DNA of 64,000 bases. Origin: Escherichia coli. Its GTDB lineage: Bacteria > Pseudomonadota > Gammaproteobacteria > Enterobacterales > Enterobacteriaceae. The position numbers and the translations under genes are program-made. Positions 3,374-16,276 of the stretch are shown here, one piece after another. Numbering within the stretch: the first letter of the stretch is position 1; each line of letters starts with the position of its first letter. Under the pieces are notes generated by a model. It saw only the letters and a list, made by a program, of their open reading frames with translations. It was not told where the DNA came from and did no database searches. The DNA lies in NCBI RefSeq assembly GCF_041248615.1, contig NZ_CP158426.1, one strand, 5' to 3'.

Positions 3374-3449
3374 TGGCTCCTCTGACTGGACTCGAACCAG
3401 TGACATACGGATTAACAGTCCGCCGTTCTACCGACTGAACTACAGAGGA
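3374..3449 (-). tRNA. asnU: tRNA-Asn (GUU anticodon)
   Basis: Identical 76-nt tRNA-Asn sequence on minus strand; located between cbl and yeeO. Confidence 0.95.
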
Positions 3450-3609: not shown

Positions 3610-5097
3610 ATGTGGTTTCACTTTCTGCAATTAAGGTCGGCTTTGAATATCTCCTCTGCTTTACGCCAGGTTGTTCACGGCACTCGCTGGCACGCTAAAC
3701 GCAAGAGCTACAAAGTGTTGTTCTGGCGCGAGATAACCCCGCTTGCTGTTCCTATCTTCATGGAGAACGCCTGTGTCCTGTTGATGGGTGTCCTGAGCAC
3801 TTTTCTGGTCAGCTGGCTGGGAAAAGATGCGATGGCCGGCGTGGGATTGGCGGACAGCTTCAATATGGTCATTATGGCATTTTTTGCGGCTATCGATCTT
3901 GGTACCACTGTCGTTGTGGCATTTAGTCTCGGTAAGCGGGATCGACGACGAGCGAGGGTGGCGACGCGGCAGTCATTGGTGATCATGACGTTGTTTGCCG
4001 TGCTGTTGGCAACGCTTATTCATCATTTTGGCGAACAAATTATTGATTTCGTTGCGGGTGATGCCACGACAGAAGTTAAAGCACTGGCGTTGACTTATCT
4101 GGAGCTGACGGTACTTAGTTATCCAGCAGCTGCCATCACTTTGATTGGTAGCGGGGCACTTCGTGGTGCAGGGAATACGAAAATACCGCTACTGATTAAC
4201 GGTAGCCTGAATATTCTTAATATTATTATTAGCGGCATATTGATTTACGGCCTTTTCTCCTGGCCGGGACTGGGATTTGTCGGGGCTGGGTTGGGGTTAA
4301 CCATTTCTCGTTATATTGGCGCAGTGGCAATTTTGTGGGTGCTGGCGATTGGTTTTAATCCTGCGCTAAGGATTTCGTTAAAGAGCTATTTTAAACCGCT
4401 GAATTTTAGCATTATCTGGGAAGTCATGGGGATTGGTATTCCAGCAAGTGTCGAATCAGTATTATTTACCAGTGGTCGGTTATTAACCCAAATGTTCGTT
4501 GCCGGGATGGGGACCAGTGTTATTGCCGGAAATTTTATCGCGTTTTCAATTGCGGCTCTTATCAACTTACCCGGAAGTGCGCTCGGCTCTGCTTCTACGA
4601 TCATTACAGGCCGAAGGTTGGGAGTAGGGCAGATAGCGCAAGCAGAGATTCAGTTGCGGCATGTGTTCTGGCTGTCCACTCTTGGATTAACGGCCATCGC
4701 CTGGCTAACGGCTCCCTTTGCCGGGGTTATGGCATCGTTTTACACCCAGGATCCACAGGTTAAACATGTCGTTGTGATTCTGATTTGGCTAAATGCTTTA
4801 TTTATGCCTATTTGGTCTGCCTCATGGGTGCTACCCGCTGGATTTAAGGGTGCTCGCGATGCACGTTACGCCATGTGGGTTTCTATGTTGAGCATGTGGG
4901 GTTGCCGGGTTGTAGTCGGTTATGTGCTGGGAATCATGCTTGGCTGGGGTGTGGTTGGTGTCTGGATGGGAATGTTTGCCGACTGGGCTGTGCGGGCCGT
5001 GCTGTTTTACTGGCGAATGGTTACTGGACGTTGGCTGTGGAAATATCCTCGATCTGAGCCGCAAAAGTGTGAAAAAAAGCCAATTGTGTCGGAATAA
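3610..5097 (+). CDS. yeeO: MATE-family efflux transporter YeeO
   Basis: ORF 3457..5097 is highly hydrophobic multi-pass membrane protein; the 5' extension overlaps tRNA asnU, so start placed at ATG 3610 (495 aa, MWFHFLQL...). Confidence 0.85.
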   Translation: MWFHFLQLRSALNISSALRQVVHGTRWHAKRKSYKVLFWREITPLAVPIFMENACVLLMGVLSTFLVSWLGKDAMAGVGLADSFNMVIMAFFAAIDLGTTVVVAFSLGKRDRRRARVATRQSLVIMTLFAVLLATLIHHFGEQIIDFVAGDATTEVKALALTYLELTVLSYPAAAITLIGSGALRGAGNTKIPLLINGSLNILNIIISGILIYGLFSWPGLGFVGAGLGLTISRYIGAVAILWVLAIGFNPALRISLKSYFKPLNFSIIWEVMGIGIPASVESVLFTSGRLLTQMFVAGMGTSVIAGNFIAFSIAALINLPGSALGSASTIITGRRLGVGQIAQAEIQLRHVFWLSTLGLTAIAWLTAPFAGVMASFYTQDPQVKHVVVILIWLNALFMPIWSASWVLPAGFKGARDARYAMWVSMLSMWGCRVVVGYVLGIMLGWGVVGVWMGMFADWAVRAVLFYWRMVTGRWLWKYPRSEPQKCEKKPIVSE

Positions 5098-5197
5098 ACG
5101 ACAAAGTGCAGATTATTTCAGCAAACGATTTCAAATTTAAAAAACAGGCTTTGACATTGTGGATGGGCATCGCTAATATTCGCCTCGTTCTCACGAT

Positions 5198-5273
5198 TCC
5201 TCTGTAGTTCAGTCGGTAGAACGGCGGACTGTTAATCCGTATGTCACTGGTTCGAGTCCAGTCAGAGGAGCCA
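5198..5273 (+). tRNA. asnW: tRNA-Asn (GUU anticodon); integration site of island 1
   Basis: Canonical 76-nt tRNA-Asn sequence on + strand, immediately followed by a P4-type integrase gene. Confidence 0.95.
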
Positions 5274-5434
5274 AATTCAAGTTTTCATGCTTATCTGTAC
5301 GTCTCTATTTGTTTACGATTCAGTAAGTTAGCGTGAAAATCCTTCCCGGTGCGTATCTGGTTTTCTCTCTGTATCGGGATAATTTGGTGGTCAGATCTGG
5401 GGTCAGTTTGGTTCGATTCTGGAGTGACCCCCAA

Positions 5435-6696
5435 ATGTCTTTAAACGATTCTAAAATCCGCAAGTTAAAACCCTCTTCCCGTCTGGTAAAACTCTCCGAC
5501 TCTCACGGTCTGTATCTGCTCGTCAATCCGGGCGGTTCACGCATCTGGTATCTCAAATATCGTTTCAACGGAAAAGAATCCAGAGTCAGTCTTGGCGCAT
5601 ACCCGCTTGTCTCACTGGCAGAAGCCAGGCAACAGCGCGACGGTATCCGTAAGTTACTGGCGCAGAATATCAACCCGGCGCAGCAGCGCATGGCGGAGAA
5701 AGCGGCCTGCTCCCCTGAAAAGTGCTTTAAGGCAGTGGCGCTGGCCTGGCACAAAACCAACAAAAAATGGTCGGCTGATTATGCCGCCCGTATTCTCGCC
5801 AGTATGGAAAACCATATCTTCCCGGCGATTGGTCATCTGCCAGTTGCCACTCTTAAAACGCAGGATTTACTGCTTTGTTGCGGGTTATCGAGGATAAAGG
5901 CTTTCTGGAAGTCGCGTCCCGAACCCGGCAGCAACTCAGCAACATCATGTGCTATGCCGTTCAGCAGGGGCTTACCGAAAGCAATCCGGCGCAGCATCTG
6001 GATGGCGTTGTCGCCTCACCCGTAAAGAATCACTACCCCGCGTTACTGCTGGAGCGGTTGCCCGAACTGCTTGGCCGCATCGGTGACTATCAGCAGGGCC
6101 GGGAGTTAACACGGCTGGCGGTGGTGCTGACGTTGCACCTGTTTATCCGTTCCAGCGAACTGCGTTTCGCCCGCTGGAGCGAGATCGATTTCAGGCACAA
6201 AATCTGGACCATCCCCGCCACCCGCGAGGCAATCGACAAAGTACGGTTTTCGGGGCGTGGCGCAAAAATACGTACCCCGCATATCGTGCCGCTCTCCCGC
6301 CAGGCGATTGCCATTCTGAAACAGATACAGGAGCTTTCCGGCCATCTGGATCTGGTGTTTCCCGGTGATCATAACCCGTACAAGCCAATGAGTGAAAACA
6401 CCACCAACCGGGCGCTACGCCTGATGGGGTATGATACGAAAACTGAAATCTGCGGGCATGGACTCAGGGCGATGGCCTGTAGCGCCCTGGTGGAGTCGGA
6501 GCTGTGGTCACGCGATACGGTGGAGCGGCAAATGAGCCACCAGGAGCGTAACAGCGTGCGGGCAGCCTATGTGCATAAAGCGGAGCATCTGGAGGCCAGA
6601 AAGGCCATGATGCAGTGGTGGTCGGATTATCTGGATGTGTGCCGCGAGGGGTATGTTGCGCCGTACATTTATGCCCGGCAGCATAAGGCAGCCTGA
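5435..6696 (+). pseudogene. P4-family tyrosine integrase, frameshifted near 5872
   Basis: N-terminal part (MSLNDSKIRKLKP...ATLKTQDLL) is in frame 2 (ORF 5333..6025); C-terminal part (LRVIEDKG...HGLRAM...Y) is in frame 1 (ORF 5875..6696); restoring one C at about 5872 (ctgcCtttg) would give a contiguous DLLPLLRVIEDKG integrase of about 420 aa. Confidence 0.8.
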
Positions 6697-7260: not shown

Positions 7261-8033
7261 CAAAAAATGCGCCATAAAATACCGGGCAATCTTTCCTGAT
7301 ACACATTATCACTGCACCAGCTATACAGAGACAAAATAATCTGCACCAGCCCCTGTAAATCGGTTATTTGTGCCAGTGTCCCGCCGCTCTACCTGTTCAG
7401 GGTTGTGCCAGTTTCTGGCCCTTTGGTTTTCGGCCCTTTCCGGTCAGGCGCTGTTACCCTTATTGCCCCTTAACCTTTATGACCCTTTCCCTTTCTGACG
7501 CAACCAGTTTATTTTGAAATGCTCCATGACAGTCTGCACCAGACTGTATTTTCACCACAGGATAACGATCACAAAGTGCAAAAAAATAACATGAAGCACC
7601 GAAGATTGTTAATCTATATGTAGCAGGTAATGATGTCAAAAACTGTCGCAGCATTTTTTATAAAATTATGAGACATTCTGTGGGCATATAATATATGTCA
7701 CAAGATGCAGGAAAACAAAGAGAGAGTTTTCAGATATAATCCCGCGTTAGAATTAATGTGATGCCCCGGTGAATTTACATTTTAAAATTTCCCTGTCCCG
7801 TAATATCGGTAAAAACGATTGAAACACCAACTATTAATCGGGAACGTCTCGAGTGATTACAGGGTAATCACTATAATATCCCGGCAAACTATATTGGTTA
7901 AGCAGGAGAATCTGATCAGTTGATATTTATTCGTCATGCTGTAACGATATTTTCACAATATAAACCCGTTCGCCCCCTGCGCCAGATCCGGTACAGAGGG
8001 TACGATAAATCGCTGTCGTTACGCAGTAACGTA

Positions 8034-8650
8034 CTATTTTGCGACATTCATGAATTCAGTCATTCCTCCCTCCAGCGGTAGCCGTACACCTGTTTCACCC
8101 AGCGACCGCGACCGTCGCCATGACCCAGATCCGTCGCCGTCAGCGCCAGTGACTCCTTTTCGCTGAATCCCTGCGCCAGTATCCAGGACTGTCGTATAAC
8201 GGGGACGCCCGCCTTTGGTGCCAAATACCACTTTTAGCCGGGTTTCACCGCGGGAAATGGCTTTCAGCCACGTTTTCAGCGACTGTGAACTCTGTACCGC
8301 CTCCTGCGAACGCAGCCCCATCAGCCGCGCAATCTCCAGGCTGCTGCCAGCCCTGCGTCCTGAGTACGGGCTTTCTCCATCACCTGCCTGCGTCCAGCCT
8401 GTCTCAGCACGGCCCGCAACGCTGCCATTTCGTTTTGCAACGTTCGTAAACCAATATCCAGCTCCAGCCGTTCCTCAATGTAGCATTCGATATGGCGAAC
8501 CTTGATCTGCTCCACCCGCTGGATCTGGATATTCAGCGCCCGTAAATGTTCACTGAACCGTTTTGTAATATGGATACGGTCATTCACCGTTTTGAAGCTG
8601 CCGCCCGCTTTCTTCGCCAGCGCCTTCATTTCACTGCTTAATTTACTCAT
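8034..8650 (-). pseudogene. Degenerate tyrosine-recombinase (integrase) remnant
   Basis: ORF 8321..8650 resembles an integrase N-terminal SAM-like domain; the adjacent out-of-frame ORF 8034..8321 has a GTKGGRPRYTTVLD segment resembling the TGKGGK.R..P recombinase box; no intact catalytic C-terminus. Confidence 0.4.
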
Positions 8651-9566
8651 GAATCCCTCTGCAACAAAAACAAACAGTCTCCGGCGTGTGCTTTTTGGCT
8701 GCGCCAGAACGATACCTTTACGCCGGAGTGGTAGTTTGTTGAGGTTTAGGGAGTTTCAGGCTGTACGCAGTACAGACTGCCTGCGAAGCAGGAGTGTCTC
8801 CGGGGCTTCTTGCCCCCCTCGGTATCGATCTTTTTCTCCTTTACTCTTAGCTGACAGCGGCCCCAAAGGGCATGTCAGACGGCGGAAATATGGCGCAGGC
8901 CAGAACTGGCGCGGCTTGTGGCGGTGAGTTGTGCGGCGTCACTTTGCTTTTTCGCTGGCGCGACCAAAGTGACGCCTCGTCTGGTGCAGGGGGTAAACGT
9001 TACGTTTCTGGTGCAGGGTGACGGTCACGCGGCAGCAAAGCCTGACGGCAATGCAGGCCGCAGCCCGTCAATGTAAGGCGCTGGTTGTCAGCAGAAGATA
9101 AAACCCGGCAAAGCCAGAGTGTCAGCCCGTAAAGCCGGGTATCTGGTGCAGTGATGGTGTATATGTACGTCAGTCTCAGATGCAGGTATTTTTGCATCCC
9201 CGGCGTTTTCAGAGATCAACGCCGGTAAAGGATGCCATGCTGGCGAAGCCAGGCGCTTCTTTCAGACGTGAAGCGACAAAGGGACTGCCCGGAGGCAGTT
9301 TGTTGCAGGCGGGAGACTGCGCCATTATTTCTGGTGCAGGAAGGAAAAACTGTTTCCGGGTTTAAAAGATTGTTTGCTTACCTGGTGACGGAAAAACTGC
9401 CGCGCTTCGCTTGTCTTCTCCCGGCGCGCTGCCAGCAAAAGCAGGCAGCGCGCCGGGAGAGTCTGGTTTTACTGTAACAATGCGCCTGACGGTTCAGCCA
9501 TCAGGATCGGCGTTTATGCATGAGTCTTCCGGTACGGTTGCCCCGATCATCGATGTATCTGGACGG

Positions 9567-9755
9567 TCAGATAATTTCCGGTGATGTTTCCAGCGCATCC
9601 GCAATCAGTTTTTCGCCGCGCGGCCTGGAGCGGGTCAGCGCATTTGCCAGCGTGGAAGACGCCAGCCCGGCCCTGCGGGAAACCTCAGCCAGCGATGTTC
9701 CCTTTTTTCTCAGGCCCGCGATAATATCGGCGGGGTGCCAGTCGGGTTGCATCAT
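9567..9755 (-). CDS. Ner/Nlp-like small HTH DNA-binding protein
   Basis: 62-aa ORF with WHPADIIAGLRKKGTSLAEVSRRAGLASSTLANAL, closely resembling the Ner/Nlp family. Confidence 0.6.
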   Translation of the reverse strand: MMQPDWHPADIIAGLRKKGTSLAEVSRRAGLASSTLANALTRSRPRGEKLIADALETSPEII

Positions 9756-10213
9756 GCTGGCCTCCCGTCGATAACCTGTATGCCGTCAGCAGTACATATC
9801 CAGCGTGGGGCGTTCAGATTGGCGGCAAAATACCAGACCAGTTCGCACAGCAGCCCGGTCAGCGTGGTTTCGGTTTCCGGCAGCAGCACGTGGCCGTTCA
9901 GTATCTGCGTCAGCGCCAGGCAGTAATCGCAGAGTGATCCTGCATCAGGCTCAAAACCGGGTGAAACATCGGGAAGATCATTCGTAATAAACCCGTCAAT
10001 CAGATGTGGTGGGATCGGCTCGTTCAGCGTGGGCCGCAACAGTGCAAGACAGGTATTAAGCCTGCCACAGAGCGCCGTTTTCAGCGCCGGATCGCAGCAC
10101 TCGATGAGCGTTGTGGCAACGCGATCGCAGTACTCCGCCAGATCGGTGAAATCGGTAGCGGCACTAAAGGGAACAGCAAGTAAATTGCATTCAGAGGTGA
10201 GAGTAGTCGCCAT
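9752..10213 (-). CDS. Hypothetical protein (153 aa), 4-bp overlap with downstream Ner-like gene
   Basis: ORF only; overlapping stop/start with the Ner-like gene suggests an operon; no recognised domain. Confidence 0.35.
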   Translation of the reverse strand: MATTLTSECNLLAVPFSAATDFTDLAEYCDRVATTLIECCDPALKTALCGRLNTCLALLRPTLNEPIPPHLIDGFITNDLPDVSPGFEPDAGSLCDYCLALTQILNGHVLLPETETTLTGLLCELVWYFAANLNAPRWICTADGIQVIDGRPA

Positions 10214-10734
10214 AAGGCCGTCTACAGTGAGTGATAAATATTCCAGCCACTGGAGAGGCTAATCTCACGGGTGGTGGAACCGGACGGGGTTAGCCTTACC
10301 AGCCTCACTGACACTGGCGCGTCTTTCGACGCCCCCGCCCGATCCCGCCATTGAGATGAGACCGTGCGCGACACACAAATATTGTATCGTCAGTGAGGAT
10401 CTTCAGGAGGCTAATCCCGACGCCTGATTTTGCAGGCGCGGCGCAACAATACAATGTTCGGTAATTTTCAGCAAGAGGTTTAGCGGAAGCAGACGCACAG
10501 GAAAATACAATCACGCGATAAATATTAAATACAATTATATTTATATAAAATATATATTGAGCAATATGCAGACACTTTCCAGTAAATATCCTGTCAGTTA
10601 ATTCGTCCCGTTGATATCAGTCAAAAAAATAAATGTAAAAAGAGCGTATTTCGTTTCATACAGTAACGTTATTTATCATTTTGTCCGGTGTCGCCAGCAT
10701 CAGGCCAGATGAACCATAAAAAAGGATATCAGCG

Positions 10735-13700
10735 ATGAGCGGAAAACCGGCAGCACGTCAGGGCGATGCCACAATGAAAGGTGGCCCGATAGTCCAGGGG
10801 TCGGCAGGCGTGAGGATTGGCGCGCCAACCGGCGTGGCCTGTTCAGTGTGCCCCGGCGGATTCACTTCCGGTAACCCGGTGAATCCGCTGCTCGGTGCAA
10901 AAGTACAGCCCGGCGAAACCGATTTCGCGCTGCCCGGCCCGTTACCGTTCGTGCTCTCCCGCACCTACAGCAGCTACCGGACGAAAACCCCTGCGCCCGT
11001 CGGTATCTTCGGTCCTGGCTGGAAAGCACCCTTTGATATCCGCTTACAGATACGCGATAACGAACTGATACTCAATGATAACGGTGGCAGAAGCATTCAT
11101 TTTGAGCACCTGTTTCCCGGTGAGGATGGCTTCAGCCGCAGCGAATTATTCTGGCTGGTGCGCGGCGGCGTGGCGAAACTGAATGAAAGTCACCGTCTTG
11201 CCCCACTCTGGCAGGCTCTGCCGGAAGAACTCCGCATGAGTCCGCATATTTATCTGGCGACGAACAGTCCGCAGGGGCCGTGGTGGATACTCGGCTGGAG
11301 TGAGCGGGTACCGGGTGTGGATGAGGTGCTGCCTGCGCCATTGCCGCCGTACCGGGTGCTGACCGGCCTGGTGGACCGCTTCGGGCGTACCCTGACCTTC
11401 CGGCGTGAGGCAGTTGGCGAATTTACCGGGGAAATCACCGGCGTGACCGATGGCGCAGGCCGTCAGTTCCGCCTGGTGCTGACCACGCAGGCGCAGCGGG
11501 CGGAAGAGGCCCAGCAGCAGGCGGTTGCAGCCGGAGCAAAACGACCAGATATCCCGGTTTCATTGCCGGACTATACAGAATATGGCCGGGATAACGGCAT
11601 CCGCCTGTCAGCGGTGTGGCTGACGCATGACCCGGAATACCCGGAGAATTTACCTGCCGCGCCACTGGTGCGCTACGACTGGACGCCACGCGGTGAACTG
11701 GCGGCGGTGTATGACCGCAGCGGTACGCAGATGCGCCACTTTACTTACGATGATAAATACCGGGGCCGGATGGTGGCGCACCGTTACGCAGGCAGGCCGG
11801 AGATGCGTTACCGCTACGACGACATCGGGCGCGTGACGGAACAACGTAATCCGGCGGGTTTAAGCTACACCTATCAGTATGAGAAAAACCGCATCATCAT
11901 CACCGACAGCCTGAACCGGTGCGAGGTGCTGCATACAGAAGGCGAAGCCGGGCTGAAACGGGTGGTGAAAAAAGAGCACGCTGACGACAGCGTCACACAG
12001 AGTCAGTTCGATTCCATTGGCCGCCTTCAGTCACAGACGGATGCGGCAGGCCGGACGACAGAATACAGTCCGAATGTGGTGACGGGTCTCGTCACACGCA
12101 TCACCACGCCGGACGGCAGGAAATCGGAATTTTACTATAACAACCAGAACCAGTTAACCTCAGCATCCGGGCCTGACGGACTGGAAATGCGCAGGAAATA
12201 TGATGAGTACGGGCGTCTGACGCAGGAAACCGCTCGCAACGGCGATATCACCCGCTACAGTTATGATAATCCGCACAGTGAATTACCCTCTGCAACTGAA
12301 GATGCGACGGGTAGCCGCAAGCAGATGACGTGGAGCCGTTACGGGCAGTTACTGACTTTCACCGACTGCTCAGGCTACCAGACCCGTTATGAATACGACC
12401 GCTTTGGTCAGATGACGGCGGTCCACCGTGAGGAAGGTGTCAGTCTTTACCGCAGCTATGACAGCCGTGGTCAGTTAATCTCGGTGAAAGATACGCAGGG
12501 CCGTGAAACGCAGTATGAGTACAACGGTGCAGGCGACCTGACCGCCATTATCACGCCAGACGACAACAGAAGCGAGACACAGTACGATGCGTGGGGAAAG
12601 GCCGTCAGTACCACGCAGGGCGGGCTGACGCGCAGCATGGAATACGACGTTGCCGGACGTGTCATCAGCCTGACCAACGAGAACGGCTGTCACAGCGACT
12701 TCAGTTACGATGTGCTCGACCGCCTGATACAGCAGAGCGGCTTTGACGGGCGGACGCAACGTTACCGTTACGACCTGACCGGGAAACTCACGCAGAACGA
12801 GGATGAGGGGCTTGTCACCCTCTGGCACTACGACGAATCGGACCGTATCACACACCGCACGGTGAACGGCGAACCGGCAGAGCAGTGGCGGTATAACGCC
12901 CACGGCTGGCTGAAAGAAATCAGCCACCTGAGCGAAGGTCACCGGGTGGCGGTGCATTACGGCTATAACCGTAAGGGACGTCTCACCGGCGAGCGCCAGA
13001 CGGTGCATAACCCGGAGACGGGGGAACTGCTCTGGCTGCATGAGACAAAACACGCCTACAACGAACAGGGTCTGGCAAACCGCGTCACGCCGGACTGCCT
13101 GCCTGCTGTGGAGTGGCTGACCTACGGCAGCGGTTACCTGGCGGGGATGAAGCTGGGCGACACGCCGCTGCTGGAGTACGCGCGCGACCGCCTGCACAGA
13201 GAAACGGTGCGCAGCTTTGGCAGCATGGCAGGCAGTAATGCCGCATACGAACTGACCAGCACATACACCCCCGCAGGCCAGTTACAGAGCCAGCACCTGA
13301 ACAGCCTGGTGTATGACCGTGACTATGGGTGGAATGACAACGGCGACCTGGTGCGCATCAGCGGCCCGCGACAGACGCGGGAATACGGCTACAGCGCCAC
13401 GGGCAGGCTGGCGAGTGTGCGCACCCTCGCACCGGACCTGGACATCCGCATCCCGTATGCCACGGACCCGGCGGGCAACCGGCTGCCGGACCCGGAGCTG
13501 CACCCGGACAGTACACTCACAGTGTGGCCGGATAACCGCATCGCGGAGGATGCGCACTATGTCTACCGCCACGATGAATACGGCAGGCTGACGGAGAAGA
13601 CGGACCGCATCCCGGCGGGTGTGATACGGACGGACGACGAGCGGACCCACCACTACCACTACGACAGCCAGCACCGCCTGGTGTTCTACACGCGGATACA

Positions 13701-14916
13701 GCATGGAGAGCCACTGGTCGAGAGCCGCTACCTCTACGACCCGCTGGGACGGCGAATGGCGAAAAGGGTATGGCGGCGGGAGCGTGACCTGACGGGGTGG
13801 ATGTCGCTGTCGCGTAAACCGGAGGAGACATGGTACGGGTGGGACGGCGACAGGCTGACGACGGTGCAGACTGACACCACGCGTATCCAGACGGTGTACC
13901 AGCCGGGAAGCTTCACGCCGCTCATCAGAATCGAAACAGACGTGACCGAACTGGAGAAAGCGCAGCGGCGAAGCCTGGCGGAGAAGTTACAGCAGGAAGG
14001 GAGTAAAGATGGTCACGGCGTGGTGTTCCCGCCTGAACTGGTGCGGCTGCTGGACAGGCTGGAGGGGGAAATCCGGGCAGACCGTGTGAGTGACGAAAGC
14101 CGGGCGTGGCTTGCGCAGTGCGGGCTGACGGTGGAGCGGCTGGCGGCACAGATCGAGCCAGTTTATTTGCCTGAGCGAAAAATACATCTTTATCACTGCG
14201 ACCACCGGGGACTGCCGCTGGCGCTTATCAGTACTGAAGGTGCAACGGAATGGCGTGGGGAGTATGACGAGTGGGGGAATCAGCTTAATGAGGAGAACCC
14301 GCATCATCTGTTCCAGCCATACCGCCTGCCGGGGCAGCAGTACGATGATGAATCGGGGCTGTGCTATAATCGTTATCGTTACTACGAGCCGTTACAAGGG
14401 AGGTATATTACACAGGACCCGATTGGGTTAAATGGGGGGTGGAATTTATATAAATATCCGCTGAATCCAATAAATTATGCAGATCCTCTTGGCTTAGCCG
14501 TAGATATAAACCACTTCCCAGTCAACGAAGACATACGAAATTATGCAGAGAAAGTTTGGAATAATCCTAATATCATTACAATTGGAACACATGGTGATCC
14601 TCAATCAGTATATGATGAAAATTATAATAAGATAGATGTCAAGACATTAGCTAATGAGGTTCGAAATCATCCTAAATTTAAACCTGGAATGTCAGTAAGA
14701 CTGTTATCCTGTAATACAGGAAAAGGAAATAACTCTTTTGCACAGCAATTGGCAGATGAACTAGGTGTGAGAGTCTATGCTCCTGACCAATATGACTGGT
14801 ACTATTCAAATGGTAAGGTAGAGCCTTGGGGAGGATTCTATGATGCAAACAATCAATTGCAAATGGACACGAATCAGCCTGGACATGAGTTTACATTCAA
14901 GCGAAGGAAACCATAG
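10735..14916 (+). CDS. rhs: Rhs family polymorphic toxin (RHS/YD-repeat core plus variable C-terminal toxin tip)
   Basis: 1393-aa ORF starting [11 protein letters not shown] as in E. coli Rhs proteins; many YD repeats; core ends at ...[13 protein letters not shown]...YADPLGL (about 14497), followed by an AT-rich 139-aa tip. Confidence 0.9.
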
Positions 14917-14972
14917 GTATGAGGTATTTTCTCTTTATATTTATAACAATCCCCCTTATCTCTGGAGGTCAT

Positions 14973-15521
14973 ATGAGTAATGATAGCGAAAAGATAATAT
15001 CAACATATTCGCTCAATTTTTTATCACCAGATGATGTGAGGAAAGAAGAACTTAAGGCATCACAAGGTGATAGTGATGCTGCATTTAAATTGTACAAATA
15101 TTACCTTTTTTGCGAGCCAAAATCATACAGAAAACAGCACGAATGGTTAATAATATCGGCAAATAATGGAAATGCTATAGCTCAATATAACTTATCAAGA
15201 GAACTTGAGTCAGAAGGAAAAGTAGATGAATCAATACAATGGCTGAAAAAATCAGCGGAACATGGTAATAATTATGCACAATATCAGATGTCAAAATATT
15301 TATTAAAAATAGGTGATATTAGAGGATCGGAATATTATCTAAACTTATCTGCGGATAACGGATGTGTATTTGCAATAAAAGATATTATCAAAAATATGAT
15401 GGATAGTGGAAGGTACGATGACGCCCTCATTTGGGTTGAAAAATTGAAAAAATTGTATCCTGACACAAATACCGAACTTTACATACAAAAAATAACGCAG
15501 AAAAAAAAGCAATCCAAATAA
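14973..15521 (+). CDS. Putative Rhs immunity protein with Sel1-like repeats
   Basis: Immediately downstream of the rhs tip, AT-rich like the tip; GGAGG Shine-Dalgarno before ATG 14973; repeats GNAIAQYNL / GNNYAQYQM resemble Sel1/TPR-like motifs. Confidence 0.55.
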   Translation: MSNDSEKIISTYSLNFLSPDDVRKEELKASQGDSDAAFKLYKYYLFCEPKSYRKQHEWLIISANNGNAIAQYNLSRELESEGKVDESIQWLKKSAEHGNNYAQYQMSKYLLKIGDIRGSEYYLNLSADNGCVFAIKDIIKNMMDSGRYDDALIWVEKLKKLYPDTNTELYIQKITQKKKQSK

Positions 15522-15809
15522 TAATTATATATAATTACTCGCACAGAGTTACAGTATTGCAAGAAATATATCTAGCATATAAAGTCGCCGCCAGTAAAGA
15601 TAAAGTACTGTGTAATCCTTCCTCCCATATAGGGGTAAAAACTTAGCATCCAGTGCCCTCGACTTAATTTTTAGTATTTTCTCTGTGAAGTGACACTTCG
15701 TAGGATTCAGTTCATGTTTACCAGAAAAAAGGTGGTCATTCTGGTGGTCTTGACAATCTCGATTTTTTGTTTTAGCTTTCCAATCAGCCAATTAATGGCT
15801 ACGGCGATC

Positions 15810-15825
15810 CCAGTCAGAGGAGCCA
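15810..15825 (+). repeat. 16-bp direct repeat of tRNA-Asn 3' end (distal att boundary of asnW island)
   Basis: ccagtcagaggagcca is identical to the last 16 nt of asnW (5258..5273); preceded by tacggcgatc, which is also found at the asnT-side boundary (revcomp of 30131..30140). Confidence 0.75.
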
Positions 15826-16276
15826 AATTTTAGTTTTGAGACATCTCTATGAGTCTCAAGACAGTTAAAAAATAAAAATTATTTTTACCCGGTTACCTTG
15901 TAAAAAAGTGACCGGGTTTTTTGATTTCTGTGTTTCGTGCGCTTAATCGAGTCTCACGCTTCAGTGAGCAAATTGCCCCCCAACAGACATCACGATTCGC
16001 AAGGTCAAAAACTTCGTTCCGTGAAGTACCGTACAAAGGTATAGAGAAAAATACCTTATGCTGGATGTCGCTGTCGCGTTTTTATCGGGAAACTATGCGT
16101 AATTGCCACTTTGCCTTCTGTAATCAGAAAAAGAAGAACTGGAATTTTAATAAATATTATTTCTCTGGGAATGGGGATTTTTTATAATCAATATGACGAG
16201 TTGAACATTATATTTTTATAATGATTATATGAGATTAAAGAAATCTGCCATAAAGACAGATTTCTTTAAAATATAA

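Follow-up and report, generated by a model that had tools for sequence, protein, structure and literature searches.

The systems closest to the one considered here are the Tox-Caspase domains catalogued by Zhang, de Souza, Anantharaman, Iyer and Aravind, which have a caspase-like fold with a conserved His and Cys and occur on RHS proteins, ones from type VI secretion systems (T6SS) included (Zhang et al., 2012; PMC3482391). Most of them are internal releasing peptidases, a toxin being predicted where the domain is C-terminal-most, and the partners listed for them are Imm36 and Imm57, the latter common to Tox-LD-peptidase and Tox-Caspase; the Tox-Caspase assignment in that catalogue is purely computational (Zhang et al., 2012). 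The only T6SS effectors of clan-CD (caspase-hemoglobinase) fold to have been studied at the bench are Tce1 (PA0256, DUF4347) and Tce2 (PA2372), which are loaded on Hcp3 in P. aeruginosa (PMC13323088, 2026). Tce2 is antifungal, with a toxicity to yeast that depends on Cys115, while both proteins are harmless in E. coli, lack an immunity gene and are proposed to be anti-eukaryotic (PMC13323088). Here we compare with these systems an Rhs gene and the small gene directly downstream of it, which lie in a 64,000-nucleotide (nt) stretch of the E. coli chromosome (contig NZ_CP158426.1, assembly GCF_041248615.1; the whole stretch is called the window below). A preliminary description of the window had proposed that the Rhs protein ends in a toxin tip of unrecognised type, followed by a Sel1-repeat protein as its putative immunity partner.

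Judged by sequence and structural model, the tip is a rarer allele of a widespread, computationally predicted family of clan-CD Rhs toxins and not a new toxin type. The label 'unrecognised' has to be dropped: the tip can be placed in Tox-Caspase (clan CD, related to C80 and DUF4347), and it has paralogues in RhsA/YibG of O157 and yibJ/yibG of K-12. Our reading of the locus as a whole, to which we give a probability of roughly 60%, is that of an Rhs polymorphic toxin with a minimal clan-CD cysteine peptidase as cargo and a Sel1-repeat protein as immunity, most likely acting in the periplasm or at the cell envelope. The features on which it is built are as follows, with lengths in amino acids (aa).

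10735..14916, + strand: Rhs gene, a single open reading frame (ORF) of 1393 aa with a conserved core and a variable tip
14416..14496, + strand: end of the Rhs core, DPIGL...(17 aa)...DPLGL, from the sequence and Rhs_assc_core, with the presumed aspartyl self-cleavage site directly before the tip
14497..14913, + strand: toxin tip, 139 aa (Rhs residues 1255-1393), from the RHS_core end to the ORF end, predicted to be a clan-CD cysteine-peptidase-like domain
14590..14592, + strand: codon of His32 (GTHG), predicted general base, invariant in 51 homologues, at the C-terminal end of strand 26-30
14710..14712, + strand: codon of Cys72 (LLSCNTG), predicted nucleophile, invariant in 51 homologues, at the C-terminal end of strand 66-70
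14919..15521, + strand: putative immunity gene for a Sel1-like repeat protein of 200 aa, from PDB Sel1 matches and homology to genes downstream of related toxins (RefSeq start 14973, 182 aa)
14919..14969, + strand: N-terminal leader MRYFLFIFITIPLISGG, hydrophobic and probably a Sec signal or anchor, which aligns with the leaders of homologues and is dropped by the RefSeq start
15054..15299, + strand: Sel1-like repeat region, residues ~46-127, from phmmer alignments to LpnE and C5321

The Rhs protein has YD/RHS repeats, a core that ends in DPxGL...DPxGL and a variable tip after it. The NCBIfam equivalog RHS_core covers residues 1-1254 at 2592 bits (cut-off 2000) and ends at ...YADPLGL, TIGR03696 (Rhs_assc_core, also NCBIfam) matches residues 1177-1254, and the Pfam matches comprise DUF6531, RHS and eleven copies of RHS_repeat. 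A 139-aa tip following a core end of DPIGL...YADPLGL, as first described, is confirmed by the RHS_core boundary at residue 1254, and so is the abrupt shift to an AT-rich, foreign composition, the G+C content dropping from about 0.63 to 0.33 (in 300-nt windows, 0.60-0.66 in the core and 0.31-0.38 in the tip and the next ORF). Self-cleavage is established for Rhs/TcC proteins, and by analogy an aspartyl cut directly before the tip is presumed in the window protein. At its N-terminus a weak and partial match to PAAR_motif (residues 2-20, E 0.044) represents a PAAR remnant only, and no vgrG was found within the island that carries the gene.

The tip matches no model in Pfam or NCBIfam, and phmmer against the PDB was equally blank. 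LRR_10, Atu3015, alpha/beta hydrolase and Cmr6 were rejected as identities of the tip, their matches in Pfam, NCBIfam and the PDB (phmmer, and hmmsearch with profiles of 8 and 51 sequences) being at chance level. Among 5.8 billion proteins, a word-indexed search returned 9 relatives, which implied a tiny family. This was ruled out by an exhaustive search in which a profile of those relatives (alignment A1) was run against 1.84 billion cluster representatives; it recovered 3,540 proteins at E<=1e-3, of which 1,490 reach E<=1e-10. The family ranges over Proteobacteria, Firmicutes and giant type VII secretion system (T7SS) proteins, and it has two architectures. In the first the domain is C-terminal-most, directly after DPxGL (Rhs/YD), after HINT, or on CdiA-type proteins with DUF637; in the second, two to seven internal copies lie within giant proteins of 2-7 thousand amino acids (kaa).

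Across 51 sequences with 22-49% identity to the tip (alignment A2), the invariant columns are H32, C72, L85, G106 and G129, and at least 90% of the sequences share G33, L69, G75, W101 and a V-x-A-P strand; the residue before Cys72 is Ser or Ala. H32 and C72 belong to the motifs ITIGTHGDP (tip residues 27-35) and LLSCNTGKG (tip residues 69-77), in which a possible His/Cys catalytic pair had been suspected at the outset, a suspicion supported by their invariance and by their placement as a clan-CD dyad in the structural model. That model, made with AlphaFold from the 51 sequences (mean predicted local distance difference test, pLDDT, 97.6), is a small alpha/beta sheet with His32 after strand 26-30 and Cys72 after strand 66-70, and the pair is predicted to fit the clan-CD order of His-Gly followed by Ser/Ala-Cys, each after a hydrophobic strand. 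The His-to-Cys spacing is 40 aa in the window tip; published spacings are 45 aa in TcdB, 50 in Tce2 and 54 in Tce1 (PMC13323088). Foldseek, proposed in the preliminary description as a check on the tip, was run against the PDB and gave all of the best 14 places to the C80 cysteine protease domains (CPDs) of TcdA, TcdB and Vibrio MARTX, at probability 1.00. One outcome named there as counting against the proposal was a match to a known toxin domain that works independently of the His and Cys; the family matched here depends on this very pair. Glycosylphosphatidylinositol (GPI) transamidase and legumain-type ligases were also among the fold matches, and no clan-CD peptidoglycan hydrolase was. 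On this modelled fold, the tip belongs to the caspase-hemoglobinase (clan CD) superfamily, whose alpha/beta fold is common to caspases, legumain, gingipain and CPD; it is a minimal and divergent member with C80 and DUF4347 as its nearest kin.

Sequence support for this kinship is weak but consistent. The tip has no match to Peptidase_C80 (PF11713) at E<=1, and 7 of the 51 relatives match it below threshold (best E 1e-3); it likewise has no match to DUF4347 (PF14252) in a Pfam scan, and 13 of the 51 relatives match that model below threshold (best 4.9e-5). In two of the giant proteins (P0010 and P0013), DUF4347 scores above threshold (56.9 bits, cut-off 24.6) on the same domains that the family profile marks, which suggests that the tip is a divergent relative lying outside the current DUF4347 model. 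The giants (P0010, P0013 and P0017, together with P0011-P0016 and P0020-P0027) are proteins of 2-7 kaa with three to seven protease-like domain copies each, spaced between PI3/4-kinase-like, HipA-like, Fam20C-like or RelA/SpoT domains, and several begin with a WXG100-like (T7SS) domain. In appearance they are toxins with several effectors, which self-cleavage would separate.

Such internal repetition raises the question of whether the window tip is antibacterial at all. It might instead be a releasing or processing peptidase of the CPD kind, or an anti-eukaryotic effector like Tce2, with the Sel1 protein as an accessory factor; most Tox-Caspase domains are internal releasing peptidases, the family includes giants with two to seven internal copies, and Tce2 is antifungal, not antibacterial. 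A releasing role is unlikely, however, because the protein ends with the tip and has no further cargo to set free, and an Rhs core cuts itself at an aspartyl site of its own. No Lys or Arg stands among the invariant or at least 90% conserved columns of the 51 sequences, which makes an inositol hexakisphosphate (InsP6) pocket, and with it a CPD-style activation of the tip by InsP6, unlikely on sequence grounds. To our knowledge, InsP6 is missing from bacteria. The downstream gene, which co-varies with the toxin from Streptococcus to E. coli and is kept beside pseudogene toxins, carries the signature of immunity, and altogether we consider a non-antibacterial tip very improbable.

That linkage was followed through ten genome loci (5-sequence close-relative alignment), several metagenome contigs and the rhsA loci of EDL933 and K-12. 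The genome loci come from Rheinheimera (two), a gammaproteobacterial metagenome-assembled genome, Arsukibacterium, Delftia and five oral Streptococcus. In the subfamily of the tip marked by the motif 'VD(I/L)NLF', every locus has a small Sel1-like homologue of the window ORF directly downstream, the partner being found in all ten genome loci, five metagenome loci and E. coli O157/K-12. These partners resemble one another in pairwise blastp (one query against a small subject set, E 2e-16 to 9e-6), score 42-89 bits with a hidden Markov model (HMM) of their alignment A4, and share an N-terminal motif, 'STGS..F.s.de', as well as the motif 'AAFrLYkYY...WL..aA..G...AQyNL'. In K-12 the partner is intact beside yibJ, which has an in-frame stop within the conserved FAQ motif, and in four streptococcal loci (L015-L018) it is intact beside a frameshifted toxin; retention of the partner where the toxin is broken is as expected of an immunity gene. 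To judge from the loci compared, the pair has the layout of a polymorphic toxin-immunity system, namely a variable C-terminal-most domain and a small co-travelling gene downstream, and the Sel1-like gene is the putative cognate immunity gene of the tip. The preliminary description had made the same proposal, which gains from the conservation of the partner across phyla.

Streptococcal loci L015-L018 (Streptococcus timonensis/oralis, ~3930-4710) belong to the five streptococcal loci, in four of which a frameshift divides the toxin ORF while a leaderless Sel1 partner of 107 aa is intact. L015 has a second Sel1 paralogue at 5129-5509, and the loci resemble rows of orphan cassettes for toxin and immunity. 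The motif 'DVDxNGxFDVIAHG' marks a second toxin subfamily, which comprises standalone genes of 163 aa and proteins of CdiA/DUF637 and HINT type. Its partner is a leaderless Zn-ribbon protein of ~117-120 aa without Sel1 (L006 1234-2068; L030 1798-6110), and the Zn-ribbon partners at these two loci are similar to each other.

The window ORF at 14919-15521 is, by its matches, a Sel1-like repeat (SLR) protein. In phmmer searches of the PDB it finds LpnE (6deh, E 1.7e-12), C5321 (4bwr, E 7.2e-12) and five more Sel1 entries; Pfam Sel1 is below threshold at residues 87-117 (16.8 vs 30.7 bits), as is Pfam TPR, and neither Imm57 nor Imm36 was detected in the Pfam scan. The AT-rich downstream ORF with Sel1-like repeats that had first been noted is in this way upheld, with its LpnE and C5321 matches near E 1e-12 and its G+C content of 0.31-0.38. 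Public gene calls for it vary between 200, 182 and 224 aa. The ATG at 14919 lies 2 nt past the rhs stop codon with AAGGA 10 nt upstream, and the ATG at 14973 (Met19, chosen by RefSeq/PGAP) has a strong GGAGG 4 nt upstream. From 14919 the protein begins with a leader that has a basic n-region and an h-region of 12-14 residues, read directly from the sequence. It aligns with the leaders of YibG (MKACLLLFFYFSFICQLHG|AD) and of the homologues in Delftia (MMRYIFILFMLVTMTNIANS) and Rheinheimera (MKLFFLIILVTTMTGFNA|KS), and with the lipobox leaders of two further loci (L022, LAGC; L028, LPGC). A leader is encoded in 11 of 12 distinct Gram-negative-type loci, and is absent from the Streptococcus copies and from one betaproteobacterial copy (L020, in a VgrG-DUF2169-PAAR-Rhs operon). 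Leaders in nearly all Gram-negative copies suggest that the window gene starts at 14919 and not at 14973; by homology the 200-aa form is the better gene call, and the protein is probably exported. It is conceivable that both starts are used, giving two isoforms.

The Sec and lipoprotein leaders on nearly all Gram-negative immunity copies make the periplasm or envelope the most likely site of action, and, if the tip is a toxin, we lean slightly towards that compartment in Gram-negative bacteria. The same clan-CD protease toxin could instead act in the cytoplasm of the target, the immunity protein intercepting it en route or remaining cytosolic when made from 14973. The leaderless immunity homologues of Streptococcus and of the T6SS locus L020, the strong GGAGG ahead of the RefSeq start and the leaderless Zn-ribbon partner of the sister CdiA/HINT subfamily all point this way. 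They have to be set against the leader in 11 of the 12 Gram-negative-type loci (both E. coli paralogues included, and some with a lipobox), the alignment of these leaders with one another, and the coupling of the ATG at 14919 to the rhs stop codon, and we regard a cytoplasmic site as unlikely.

From the anatomy, the modelled fold, the conserved dyad and the cross-taxa linkage we infer how the proposed envelope-acting toxin would work. The tip would probably be freed by a self-inflicted cut after DPLGL while still within the Rhs shell, and then pass into neighbouring bacteria, presumably through a T6SS whose genes lie elsewhere. There it would poison the cells by cleaving a target with the help of His32 and Cys72, in E. 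coli most likely at the cell envelope or in the periplasm. Its specific immunity protein would be the Sel1-repeat protein, which would block the tip by binding to it. It is improbable that the caspase fold serves a non-proteolytic reaction or one on a non-protein substrate, such as the cleavage or transpeptidation of peptidoglycan stem peptides or lipid-linked precursors. Clan CD does include transamidases and ligases, two of which appeared among the fold matches, and peptidoglycan precursors, being present on both sides of the membrane, would reconcile the exported and non-exported immunity proteins of the family. Imm57, moreover, is shared by Tox-LD-peptidase and Tox-Caspase (Zhang et al., 2012). 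The idea is nonetheless speculative: the fold matches contained no clan-CD peptidoglycan hydrolase, and the Imm57 link may merely reflect neighbouring orphan modules, since in K-12 yibV lies two modules after yibJ.

The pair in the window has relatives within E. coli itself, which were located through a literature lead and a scan of the rhsA locus with the family HMM. An in-silico study of enterohaemorrhagic E. coli (EHEC) EDL933 had modelled the RhsA C-terminus onto TcdA (3HO6), noted a partner, z5018, with Sel1/TPR repeats, and taken the TcdA match as GTPase inhibition (PMC7216683). The domain matched is the protease domain, so that a GTPase-inhibiting function is unsupported. The C-terminal region of RhsA in O157:H7 EDL933 has 40% identity to the window tip (E 3e-25), YibG has 28% identity to the window Sel1-like protein (E 3e-13) in an alignment that begins at the signal peptide, and the family HMM scores 115 bits on the EDL933 RhsA C-terminus and 111 bits on K-12 yibJ. 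In O157:H7 the yibJ-type tip is fused to a full-length RhsA (L026, EDL933, 7508-12210); in K-12 MG1655 (L027, 6222-7639) yibJ is an orphan pseudogene of this caspase-fold toxin family, and yibG, which encodes a Sel1 protein with a signal peptide, is intact. The window pair is, by these comparisons, a divergent paralogue of the yibJ-yibG module. Both it and O157 RhsA/YibG have the same Rhs core type, but the window pair sits in a 10.5-kb asnW island and the O157/K-12 pair at the rhsA locus, the O157 tip has a C-terminal extension of ~25 aa that the window tip lacks, and the immunity protein is 200 aa in the window against 153 aa for YibG. Cross-immunity between the two modules is unlikely. No functional paper on yibG or yibJ was found in the literature.

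Further along from yibJ/yibG in K-12 (L027, 7640-8681) come the Rhs-tip fragments yibS/yibW, followed, two orphan modules on, by yibV (annotated as PF15596, Imm57). The published link between Imm57 and Tox-Caspase may arise from this proximity of yibV and yibJ and not from a true pairing.

Of 5426 complete E. coli genomes, 91 (1.7%) have the tip and the Sel1-like ORF together, at identity of at least 99% and as a single copy each, and 3,508 (65%) have DNA of the yibJ/yibG type; a distant blastn search of E. coli genomes turned up no diverged copy at the DNA level. Over part of its range the window allele is degenerating. In several genomes, from enterotoxigenic E. coli (ETEC) and other strains (H36-H40, H49), the only annotation of the tip is a truncated 'RHS repeat-associated core domain-containing protein', with alignments 1 nt shorter, and in one strain (H46) IS1 is inserted in the region.

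The pair lies in a chromosomal region flanked by yeeN, amn and shiA, and its tip region (14497-15521) is 100% identical to that of E. coli strain N3. Its island, ~10.55 kb long, has at either edge a 21-25-nt repeat derived from the 3' end of a tRNA gene.

5198..5273, + strand: tRNA-Asn (GTT), the island integration site, from ARAGORN, with its 3' end (5253-5277) as the left att repeat copy
15805..15829, + strand: attR, the right copy of the tRNA-Asn 3'-end repeat and right edge of the island, from the direct repeat

Apart from the rhs gene and its partner, the island carries no intact cargo. Close to its left edge is an integrase gene, which in the RefSeq annotation of strain N3 (identical in the tip region) follows the tRNA-Asn and has a frameshift. 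In 5414 of 5426 E. coli genomes, the DNA to the right of the repeat at 15829 belongs to the backbone. The window has two more tRNA-Asn genes (965-1040 and 3374-3449). An exact 18-nt repeat, TGGATGTCGCTGTCGCGT, occurs in the rhs core (13798-13815) and in the backbone between attR and yeeN (16062-16079); similarity around it does not extend past the repeat, and it is probably irrelevant.

As a genome finding the pair is a sound lead of an unsurprising kind. Few of the Rhs toxins studied so far have a protease as their tip, and we know of no clan-CD protease with a demonstrated bactericidal effect; among the relatives, tests have been confined to Tce2 (antifungal) and the CPDs (self-processing). 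It is tentatively possible that the tip, together with yibJ and the RhsA C-terminus, represents the first antibacterial caspase-fold protease toxins, directed at a periplasmic envelope target and blocked by exported Sel1-repeat immunity. If this is true, yibG, a 'y-ome' gene of K-12, would be an orphan immunity gene, and T6SS/Rhs effectors that target the envelope would gain a new enzymatic class. The family is large, with a copy in most E. coli, and offers a genetic handle in the His/Cys dyad and the probably exported immunity partner; identification of the substrate would reveal a new bacterial attack on the proteome or envelope of other bacteria, and with it the K-12 genes yibJ and yibG would gain an annotation.

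Set beside the known systems, the window tip fits Tox-Caspase, whose C-terminal and internal or repeated architectures are both seen in its family, whereas its Sel1-like partner, usually with an export leader, falls outside the 2012 list. The CPDs of Vibrio MARTX and C. difficile TcdA/TcdB are internal domains of 200-250 aa in host-directed toxins, activated by InsP6 and self-processing; the tip, in contrast, has 139 aa, is terminal, has no conserved basic residue, stays below the C80 threshold and comes with a putative immunity gene. Among Rhs proteins, a 2025 preprint reports one Peptidase_C80 tip cluster, in Ralstonia, made up of pseudogenes only. Tce1 and Tce2 show no HMMER-level similarity to the tip, and they travel as cargo of the Hcp lumen, whereas the window domain is an Rhs tip with an immunity candidate downstream. 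For the partner, the nearest parallel is PA5087/PA5088, which PMC7216683 cites as Sel1-repeat immunity proteins for a T6SS phospholipase D effector. These set Sel1-like immunity against a T6SS effector, as is proposed here for the window protein, a likeness that holds at the level of repeat type; their cognate toxin is a lipase, and the window tip a predicted peptidase.

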